From Escherichia coli (lineage in GTDB: Bacteria > Pseudomonadota > Gammaproteobacteria > Enterobacterales > Enterobacteriaceae): a stretch of DNA of 64,000 nt. A model generated the notes under the pieces. The model did no database searches. It saw nothing but the letters and a program-made list of their open reading frames with translations, and had not been told where the DNA came from. The stretch lies in assembly GCF_016026235.1 (NCBI RefSeq), contig NZ_CP065613.1; one strand, written 5' to 3'. A program made the translations under genes and the position numbers. Below, piece by piece: positions 62,054 through 64,000 of this stretch (positions within the stretch are counted from its first letter, which is position 1; each line of letters opens with the position of its first letter).

Positions 62054-62207
62054 GGCGTATTCCAGATTAAGGTTAAGAATTTTCGTCTGCGCGAATGGTA
62101 CACCGATACCACTATCGGACAAAATTCTGCGTTTTAATTCAGCATTCACCGCCAAAAGCGACTAATTTTAGCTGTTACAGTCAGTTGCTAAATGCAAAGG
62201 AGCATTC

Positions 62208-62217
62208 ATGAAGCAAA
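62208..62217 (+). pseudogene. pgl: Remnant of the 6-phosphogluconolactonase gene: start codon plus about 7 nt only
   Basis: atgaagcaaa preceded by the SD-like aaggag; from my memory of the reference locus pgl starts ATGAAGCAAACAGTT (MKQTV...). Here the sequence diverges after atgaagcaaa into AT-rich prophage-type DNA and a stop follows within 8 codons. Confidence 0.55.
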
Positions 62218-62288
62218 TGCCTCTTAGGAATTAATCCTTTATAATCAATTAATTACAAGTGGCGTTTCGAAATCATTCGAAATTAATT

Positions 62289-63335
62289 CTAAATGTCTTT
62301 CCATTCCCTCCCTCGTCCGTCACGGTATTTATCCGTCATGCTGGATGAACGATGTCCAAGGAGCGCCTGAGTGAAATCACTGCCTTTTTCTGCTGAGTGC
62401 AGGCGACCGGATAAACTTCGGATTTCATGAAATGGCGGTGGGTCACCTTCCCATTTCAATCCGGATGTGTCTCGGGCAATCCTGAACTGTGCTGCGATTG
62501 TCCTGGCTGTCTTCCCTCCGAGTAACTTTTCGTTTTTACCGTTTATTTTTTTCAAGTTATCCAGTACATCGGCAAGTGTTAAATTCAATCTGGAAATCGT
62601 GGTGGGGAGAGAAATGCGAATTTTTGCCCCTGTTTTTTGTTGTTCCACGTATAGCCTGCCATCTCTTATATCCTCCCATCTCATAGCCGCCAGATCTCCT
62701 TCGCGCTGTCCTGTTACCAGTGCAAGATCCATGCAAAGGCCGAACCATTCGTTCTGGACGTCTGCTATTTTCCTGATTAACAGATACTCGTCAATTAACA
62801 GTCGACTGCGCTTCACTTCAGTTCTGAATGGCTTGGTTGCAGAAGCTGGATCTTCTTCGGCAAGACCAGAAGCTATAGCTGTTTTAAAAATGTCTGATAA
62901 AAGCGCCCTGTACTGGTTAGCAATAGCAAATTTACTCCCAGCTGCTCTGATTTCAAGAAAGCTGTACACCTCCCTTATGCCTATATTTTTAACCGGAACA
63001 CCACCAAAGTATTCACTTATGATTTTCAACCTCTGGTTGTGTCTTTTCATGGTGTTTGTGCTTAATTGTCTACGCTCTATTTCATTTCTGAAATTTAATA
63101 TCAGCTCGCAGAATAATGTTACGCTATTACCTTTTATTCTATCCAGTAAGCTTATATGTTGCGTGGATAATAATTCCATATTTGCCGCAATAGCCTCATT
63201 AACTGCAATTCTTTTGTCTCTTCCGATTCCAAACTCCCTTCCTGAACGTGGGTCACGATAACTATAATATCCACCTCGATTGTAAAGATTGGGTGGTAGA
63301 TCACGTGTGTTTGAGTTTCTTCTTCGTCCGGTCAT
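62289..63335 (-). CDS. int: Lambdoid prophage integrase (tyrosine recombinase)
   Basis: Track ORF 62289..63416; closely resembles lambda Int (RRRNSNTRDLPPNLYNRGGYYSYRDPRSGREFGIGRDKRIA... / ...VTGQREGDL... / ...FHEIRSLSGRL... / ...LLGHRSSSMTDKYRDGRGREW) with catalytic Arg, His and Tyr motifs retained; preferred start MTGRRRN at 63335 (alternative 63395). Confidence 0.85.
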   Translation of the reverse strand: MTGRRRNSNTRDLPPNLYNRGGYYSYRDPRSGREFGIGRDKRIAVNEAIAANMELLSTQHISLLDRIKGNSVTLFCELILNFRNEIERRQLSTNTMKRHNQRLKIISEYFGGVPVKNIGIREVYSFLEIRAAGSKFAIANQYRALLSDIFKTAIASGLAEEDPASATKPFRTEVKRSRLLIDEYLLIRKIADVQNEWFGLCMDLALVTGQREGDLAAMRWEDIRDGRLYVEQQKTGAKIRISLPTTISRLNLTLADVLDNLKKINGKNEKLLGGKTARTIAAQFRIARDTSGLKWEGDPPPFHEIRSLSGRLHSAEKGSDFTQALLGHRSSSMTDKYRDGRGREWKDI

Positions 63336-63525
63336 TTCTGATTCTCTGCAAAAGCCCGCCAGTCGTTTGAGGTGTAATTTTTTTTGCTGACTCATGAAAT
63401 AAATATTCACGCCCATCCTTTATCGGTGGTGGAAAAATCTTACATTCTCGCACCCAGCGGCGAACCGTTTCTGGGCTTCGTGGACGTAACTGACGGGCGT
63501 TCCATTCTTTGAGTGTCAAATACAT
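63301..63525 (-). CDS. xis: Prophage excisionase (Xis)
   Basis: 74-aa ORF MYLTLKEWNARQLRPRSPETVRRWVRECKIFPPPIKDGREYLFHESA..., near-identical at the N-terminus to lambda Xis; 3' end overlaps the int start as in lambda. Confidence 0.85.
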   Translation of the reverse strand: MYLTLKEWNARQLRPRSPETVRRWVRECKIFPPPIKDGREYLFHESAKKITPQTTGGLLQRIRNDRTKKKLKHT

Positions 63526-63629
63526 GTCATATTCCTGTAATATGACCGCCAGTAAATATACAGAATACTGGCGGGCGTGGTTGATTTTTAATAATCAGCT
63601 ATGAAGTTCTAATTTTGATATAATGCAAC

Positions 63630-63824
63630 TCACGAGGACAGAAGTTTCTCGCAATTAAAATTTATCAGTTTTACTTTCTGCTCTCTGGAAACGCCTGCTT
63701 CTTTTTTCCCTGAGAGCATTTTTTCGCATTCTGATTTCGTTAGTTTAGATTTTGAATATCTTGTCCAGCTGGTAGGAGAACCACCTTCCTTTTCAATAGT
63801 GGCTGTAATTTTATACATGAACAC
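63630..63824 (-). CDS. Hypothetical small prophage protein (b-region/early-left position)
   Basis: 64-aa ORF MFMYKITATIEKEGGSPTSWTRYSKSKLTKSECEKMLSGKKEAGVSREQKVKLINFNCEKLLSS, same strand and direction as xis/int; no recognisable domain. Confidence 0.4.
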   Translation of the reverse strand: MFMYKITATIEKEGGSPTSWTRYSKSKLTKSECEKMLSGKKEAGVSREQKVKLINFNCEKLLSS

Positions 63825-63867
63825 CTACATTAATATTTTCAAAAACCGTGTTCAAAATGCACTTGGT

Positions 63868-64000
63868 TTTACACCGGAATATTCTCATCGTATCCTGCTT
63901 GTTGCGTTTCGTTTTGTGTTTGTGGATCCGGGAATGCATATTCAACGCCTTCCAGTTCAATCCATAGTGCATTACGACCAGCTTTGATTGTCGGCCAGTC
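63868..64000 (-). CDS. 3' end of a further prophage ORF entering from beyond the window end
   Basis: Open minus-strand frame from the window edge to a stop near 63868-63870, C-terminus ...DWPTIKAGRNALWIELEGVEYAFPDPQTQNETQQAGYDENIPV; hand-translated, not in the ORF track. Confidence 0.3.

Follow-up and report, generated by a model that had tools for sequence, protein, structure and literature searches.

The pgl start codon as the very probable attachment site of a lambda-family prophage in Escherichia coli

Introduction

The closest described systems for the locus analyzed here are phage lambda, the Rac prophage, the icd-integrating elements e14 and phage 21, and the ipaH-bearing prophages of Shigella. 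Rac integrates at ttcA. Both e14 and phage 21 integrate in icd and replace the 3' end of the gene, and in each case the phage attP includes a duplicate of that end. The pgl gene itself has been lost from E. coli B/BL21. Lambdoid prophage remnants bearing ipaH, called 'ipaH islands', were reportedly recognized in Shigella genomes by Jin et al. in 2002. Reviews of the chromosomal ipaH genes are available (PMC9320238, PMC9046306). A full-text search, in which few subscription journals were covered, returned no literature naming pgl or ybhA as an attachment site or defining its core.

The window is a 64,000-nucleotide stretch of E. coli contig NZ_CP065613.1 (assembly GCF_016026235.1). It stops 1.8 kb into a prophage, and attR and pgl were read in near-identical relatives. 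The region is very probably the attL (B-O-P') of a lambda-family prophage inserted at the pgl start codon, with pgl rebuilt at attR, and elements of this sort are characteristic of E. coli of the Shigella lineage. The prophage is oriented as in lambda, with int at the gal-side junction, and differs from lambda in its attB, which is on the start codon of pgl and ~8 kb from att-lambda.

Results and discussion

The host side of the junction

The host gene flanking attL is ybhA (61235-62053, minus strand), which is present in the ORF list and annotated as ybhA in matching genomes. The ybhA-pgl intergenic region (62054-62204, plus strand) constitutes the B arm, and colinearity with K-12 holds as far as 62217. 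The B arm keeps the native region upstream of pgl together with the pgl Shine-Dalgarno sequence, AAAGGAGCA, and both are directed into the prophage. The Shine-Dalgarno is followed by ATGAAGCAAA at 62208-62217, the first 10 nt of pgl. Over 5,400 complete genomes of E. coli stop matching the window at 62217 and run on into pgl, which places the junction exactly where a prior reading of the letters alone (the sequence-only reading) had put it approximately. The same reading had located ybhA, the pgl remnant, the phage DNA, int, xis and the small leftward ORFs, and each was found at its assigned position. Translation from the pgl ATG at attL would yield MKQMPLRN-stop, a reading frame of 8 codons, and the int stop codon (62289-62291) is 71 bp past the junction, beyond a stretch of AT-rich DNA.

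The window is colinear with K-12 from ybgA to the junction with the exception of one IS1. Upstream of ybgA, the window has kdpA-kdpF-ybfA and the rhsC-ybfD block of K-12 is absent.

The integrase, excisionase and early genes

The int gene (62289-63335, minus strand) is intact and encodes a 348-residue heterobivalent tyrosine integrase of the lambda family. The protein aligns end-to-end with lambda Int (5j0n/1z1g) over residues 3-347 with an E-value of about 1e-83 and ~45% identity. Pfam assigns the domains Arm-DNA-bind_1 (PF09003), Phage_int_M and Phage_integrase, the PHROG class is integrase, and the arm-binding N-terminal domain has a further match in 1kjk, the structure of the lambda N-domain (E 3.5e-20). 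All six catalytic residues are present (R212, K235, H308, R311, H333, Y342) and equal those of lambda Int in the alignment, in agreement with the earlier statement that the catalytic motifs are retained. The ORF list also contains a 375-residue version that starts at an in-frame ATG at 63416 upstream of int. This start was dropped in favor of 63335: the alignment with lambda Int opens at residue 3 of the 348-residue form, and the majority of gene calls also use 63335.

The adjacent xis gene (63301-63525, minus strand) encodes a 74-residue excisionase (Pfam Exc; PHROG excisionase) that is 75% identical to lambda Xis. The gene overlaps the int start by 35 nt, the lambda-like overlap that had been recognized from the sequence. 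When the phage portion of the window was compared by megablast with 50,697 phage records, the rcbA/RalA stretch alone was matched. A tblastn search with Int against sequenced phages found nothing >45% identical.

The rcbA/ydaC-like small ORF (63630-63824, minus strand) encodes a DUF1187 protein by Pfam and PHROG and resembles its counterpart in the Rac prophage. Antisense to this ORF is a homologue of the RalA sRNA (63634-63812, plus strand; Rfam RF02694), a type I antitoxin RNA, that is matched over its full length with 216 bits compared to the Rfam gathering score of 170. A ralR toxin gene is absent from the position beside RalA, leaving only the RNA half of the RalR/RalA type I toxin-antitoxin pair. 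The adjacent ORF is instead the C-terminal end of an AAA_24-family early gene (63869-64000, minus strand) that runs past the window edge. The int-xis-rcbA(ydaC) order and the RalA sRNA are shared with Rac, and so are a RecE-like exonuclease, YdaE, DUF1391, YdaT and other Rac-type genes further on. The element differs from Rac in having the AAA_24 gene and gam in place of ralR, and in its integrase and attachment site.

The common core and attachment-site architecture

The common core is the 13-bp sequence TTCATGAAGCAAA (62205-62217, plus strand), which holds the pgl ATG (62208-62210) and is identical in attL, attR and attB. It occurs once in the window and was seen in the window attL, in 14 attR junctions and in the empty attB site of K-12, and identity stops at both of its edges. 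The attR junction sequence is GAGGTGTG-TTCATGAAGCAAA-CAGTTT, and the longer attR string is GAGGTGTGTTCATGAAGCAAACAGTTT. The core is distinct from the lambda core, GCTTTTTTATACTAA, as had been noted from the sequence.

Two putative core-type Int sites flank the center of the core. The host site B, GGAGCATTC (62199-62207, plus strand), includes the pgl Shine-Dalgarno, and the candidate phage site C' is AAATGCCTC (62215-62223, plus strand). The host and phage 9-mers are inverted repeats across a 7-bp spacer. This symmetry extends to 6-8 of 9 positions in four Int lineages, compared to a chance level in the window sequence of 0.02% of positions for symmetry at 8/9 or better and 1.1% for 6/9 or better. 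The symmetry indicates that the strand-exchange overlap is probably the 7-bp ATGAAGC (62208-62214), which is centered in the 13-bp identity. With this overlap, the Shine-Dalgarno of pgl would be part of the host core-type site.

The phage side of attL has the features of a lambda P' arm. An IHF H'-type site, AATCAATTAATTA (62243-62255, plus strand), fits WATCAANNNNTTR and aligns with the lambda H'-type site, TTATCAATTTGTTG, at an equal offset from the core; the IHF consensus and the function of the site are assumed here from established knowledge of lambda. Three tandem arm-type repeats on the plus strand match P'1-P'3: TTTCGAAAT (62265-62273), ATTCGAAAT (62275-62283) and ATTCTAAAT (62286-62294). 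The third repeat overlaps the int stop codon. As in lambda, the three tandem P' sites end at the int stop, ~78 bp from the core center compared to 81 bp in lambda, whereas the repeat itself is ATTCGAAAT-like here and CAGTCACTAT-like in lambda. The P' arm repeats are kept in Int relatives of 70-80% identity.

The attP was rebuilt by joining the attR P arm to the window's P' arm. Putative arm repeats of the ATTCGAAAT type are at +54, +64, +75 and -142, and the matching ATTCGAAAT at -142 belongs to the P arm of attR and occupies the place of lambda P1. This is the single arm-type match in the P arm, where no P2-type arm site was found within two mismatches. The rebuilt attP is colinear with lambda attP with an alignment score of 157.5 compared to 116 ± 9 for shuffled sequences, and the block GTCTGTTTTTTAT is common to the rebuilt attP and the Xis/Fis region of lambda. 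We infer that the arm-type and core-type sites are bound by Int, and every sequence-level hallmark of a lambda-type Int recombination module is in place.

The far end of the prophage and the fate of pgl

Among 5,426 complete RefSeq genomes of E. coli, a single one has the junction, FDAARGOS_943, whose host flank is 99.93% identical to the window. This genome is rich in IS600 and IS1 and carries ipaH, and its int is interrupted by IS600. The ~46.9 kb past attL in FDAARGOS_943 contain phage genes for replication, lysis, head and tail as well as ipaH, and are followed by an attR that reads ...gaggtgtgTTCATGAAGCAAAcagttt... (also given as ...gaggtgtgTTCATGAAGCAAAcagtttatatc...) and then pgl. This pgl has 331 codons, and its product is identical to K-12 Pgl at 328 of 331 residues. 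Beyond attR the order is pgl, ybhD, ybhH, ybhI, ybhJ, ybhC and then a second prophage at att-lambda. A second example is CP026875.1, in which both ends are ~49 kb apart, attL with the 348-residue Int and attR with pgl.

A small phage ORF next to attR occurs in 1,101 blocks of the assembly collection, and 14 junctions were read. All 14 are identical, and the full 331-codon pgl follows in 13 and is frameshifted in 1. The pgl product at attR is identical to K-12 Pgl at 328-331 of 331 residues (99%). The matching attR core that the sequence-only reading had proposed to look for is present in relatives of the window, as TTCATGAAGCAAA at the far end of the prophage. By extension from these relatives, the genome of the window is expected to have the same attR and an intact pgl.

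These data do not support the earlier prediction that the strain lacks Pgl: the complete 331-codon gene is at attR in 13 of 14 relatives with this prophage, and a full-length pgl at the locus is what that prediction had itself named as evidence against Pgl loss. The prediction was probably modeled on E. coli B/BL21, in which pgl is lost at this same locus; in the present case the pgl ORF is intact at attR. An attL junction alone is no ground for scoring such strains as pgl-negative.

The presence of just 10 nt of pgl in the window could also be explained by a deletion that fused the attL of a prophage at att-lambda (ybhC/ybhB) to the beginning of pgl, with the loss of pgl through ybhC and a Pgl- phenotype. 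The gene order and int orientation resemble those of lambda at att-lambda, which is ~8 kb further along in K-12. This explanation is extremely improbable given that pgl, ybhD, ybhH, ybhI, ybhJ and ybhC are all kept beyond attR in FDAARGOS_943, the closest complete genome, where att-lambda is occupied by a different prophage and the right end of the element abuts pgl rather than ybhC/ybhB. The 13-bp core at both prophage ends, the complete P' arm and the occurrence of the identical junction with diverged Int genes in other hosts also argue against a deletion. The other possibility raised from the sequence, a lambdoid phage with its attB in the 5' end of pgl, is upheld by the same core at attL, attR and the empty site, by a P' arm that is complete and lambda-like, and by Int relatives at the same site in other hosts.

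Integration at the pgl start codon would proceed by Int and IHF recombining the phage attP with the host attB through the 13-bp core that spans the start codon. Strand exchange would most likely occur in the ATGAAGC overlap between the inverted core-type sites. Two products would arise because the core is duplicated. At attL, pgl leaves behind its own promoter, its Shine-Dalgarno and its first 10 nt, which now face the P' arm and, past it, the int 3' end. At attR, the whole pgl ORF is regenerated behind phage DNA of the P arm, in which a GAGG is located 8 nt 5' of the pgl ATG. The gene is thus separated from its promoter, 5' UTR and Shine-Dalgarno and not truncated. The outcome is similar to e14 and phage 21 in that the host ORF is complete after integration. 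It differs in that the 5' end of the gene is involved, only the first 10 nt are in the core so that no residue is altered, and the promoter, 5' UTR and Shine-Dalgarno are swapped for phage DNA.

The DNA 5' of the pgl ATG at attR is phage DNA, so transcription must start from phage-side sequence. A consensus scan of this DNA gave 6 promoter-like sites compared to 4.8 ± 2.3 in shuffled sequence, which is not above chance. The maintenance of pgl in 13 of 14 IS-rich genomes weakly suggests that the gene is still in use. It is a rather doubtful proposition that integration rewires pgl expression in Shigella/EIEC, or switches it by reversible excision. If true, this would be control of the 'active lysogeny' type at the 5' end of the gene for the lactonase step of the oxidative pentose-phosphate pathway, and int would be transcribed in the antisense direction from the pgl promoter left at attL.

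The prophage body

Two relatives were compared over the last 10 kb of the window, which L004 matches at 100% and L025 at all but one base. L025 runs on for at least 9.5 kb with genes for Gam, a Rha-type regulator, repressor/Cro and replication. A prophage body therefore exists in this lineage. The prophage is ~47-49 kb between the cores in related complete genomes, and its early region is Rac-like. The sequence-only reading had set an isolated int/xis remnant against its own interpretation, and decay of this kind is evident elsewhere: heavy decay marks many Shigella copies, IS600 interrupts int in FDAARGOS_943 and CP065624.1, most S. flexneri and S. sonnei records have a partial Int, and several genomes have lost the tail genes and ipaH. 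The continuation of L025 and the 47-49 kb body in related complete genomes make it very improbable that the int-xis module of the window is a remnant with no prophage body past the window edge.

The intact int, xis and attL make excision plausible in this lineage, which is compatible with the earlier suggestion that excision may still be possible. It is unlikely that the element is a fully active, inducible phage, beyond an excision-competent or grounded prophage. The intact Int, Xis and attL, and a low phage-side divergence across host backgrounds that implies fairly recent mobility, would fit an active phage. Against it, no matching phage genome or attP was found in INPHARED or IMG/VR, where a search for free phage or circular attP as the exact attP junction was negative. 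All complete copies inspected have IS elements or pseudogenes in essential regions, for example those for terminase, head morphogenesis and tail, and the recE region of L025 is without a gene call. A viable phage is unlikely on the same grounds.

The type III secretion effector gene ipaH (annotated ipaHb) is located just inside attR in related complete genomes. An ipaH with LRR_TTSS and NEL domains is beside attR in FDAARGOS_943, in L039 and partly in L036, and is absent from decayed copies. The ipaH gene of related genomes and the IS-riddled state of the element recall the Shigella ipaH islands, and the prophage remnants with ipaH that have long been known from Shigella very probably include this element.

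Recurrence and spread of the element

The exact Int is always next to ybhA-modCBA, and the records that contain it carry the names E. coli, S. boydii, S. flexneri and S. sonnei. No further complete E. coli genome besides FDAARGOS_943 was found with the exact int or the 80% variant, and the majority of the S. flexneri and S. sonnei Int entries are partial. Int relatives of 80% identity (in another E. coli) and 78% identity (in Citrobacter) are at the same site with the same core, and a 70% relative joins ...TTCATGAAACAAACA in another host. Site specificity shared down to a 62% Int relative was considered and rejected, as the Cronobacter copy is at another locus, the psp operon.

The host flanks of two backgrounds differ by ~1.3%, to within 200 bp of the core, and the phage side across these backgrounds has 1-6 differing bases in 1,790 bp. 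Host flanks ~1.3% apart with nearly identical phage DNA point to entry into, or spread among, diverged chromosomes. The comparison suggests either separate acquisitions at one site or spread at that site among chromosomes that had already diverged.

The core, probable overlap and arm sites together define an attachment site for a lambda-family integrase without a sequenced phage relative >45% identical. Possible uses are the annotation of ipaH-bearing prophages in Shigella/EIEC, the calling of prophage boundaries and possibly an orthogonal Int/att pair. One variant of the module was seen in S. dysenteriae, where xis and int are fused.

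Variation at the pgl prophage attachment sites

The pgl gene at attR is frameshifted in one genome, CP026824.1 (L034 6392-7370), where the altered reading frame reaches a stop at codon 71 and the gene is called as two pieces of 211 and 63 amino acids. This frameshift therefore identifies a true pgl pseudogene in at least one lineage with the pgl prophage. A one-base variant occurs at attL of a second prophage-bearing genome, CP026875.1 (L026), in which the putative C′ core-type site directly following the core reads AAATGCTTC, not AAATGCCTC.

In FDAARGOS_943, the closest complete genome, the att-lambda site beside ybhC holds a second lambdoid prophage (L002 1-10500, a stretch of that genome outside the window) with the genes rexA, N, cIII, kil, xis and int. 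It lies about 10 kb past attR of the pgl prophage, and thus pgl-ybhC is bracketed by two lambda-family prophages.

A RalA homologue without ralR

A full-length homologue of the RalA sRNA (Rfam RF02694) is located at window positions 63634-63812 on the plus strand, with a score of 216 bits where the gathering threshold is 170. An rcbA-like ORF runs antisense to it. The toxin partner ralR is absent, the next ORF being the end of an AAA_24 gene, and the homologue appears to be the orphan antitoxin RNA of a type I system.

Host backbone differences

The galE stop codon TAA is replaced by AAA in the window (at about 54660-54662), and galE and galT therefore form a single in-frame ORF (53604-55718, minus strand) of 690 amino acids counted from the true galE start, with K-G-T-T at the joint. 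The same change is present in four contigs with identical Int (L004-L007) and absent from K-12 and FDAARGOS_943.

An IS1 copy (28214-28982) is inserted between sucD and mngR and is 100% identical to an IS1 copy of FDAARGOS_943. The K-12 matches on either side overlap by 9 bp (30898-30906 in the K-12 match coordinates, L021), consistent with a target-site duplication. At the window start (1-2047), kdpA-kdpF-ybfA is followed directly by ybgA, and the rhsC-ybfD block of K-12 (Rhs and H-repeat) is missing. The tRNA Lys/Val cluster 3′ of cpoB (44400-45460) has a repeat copy number unlike that of K-12.
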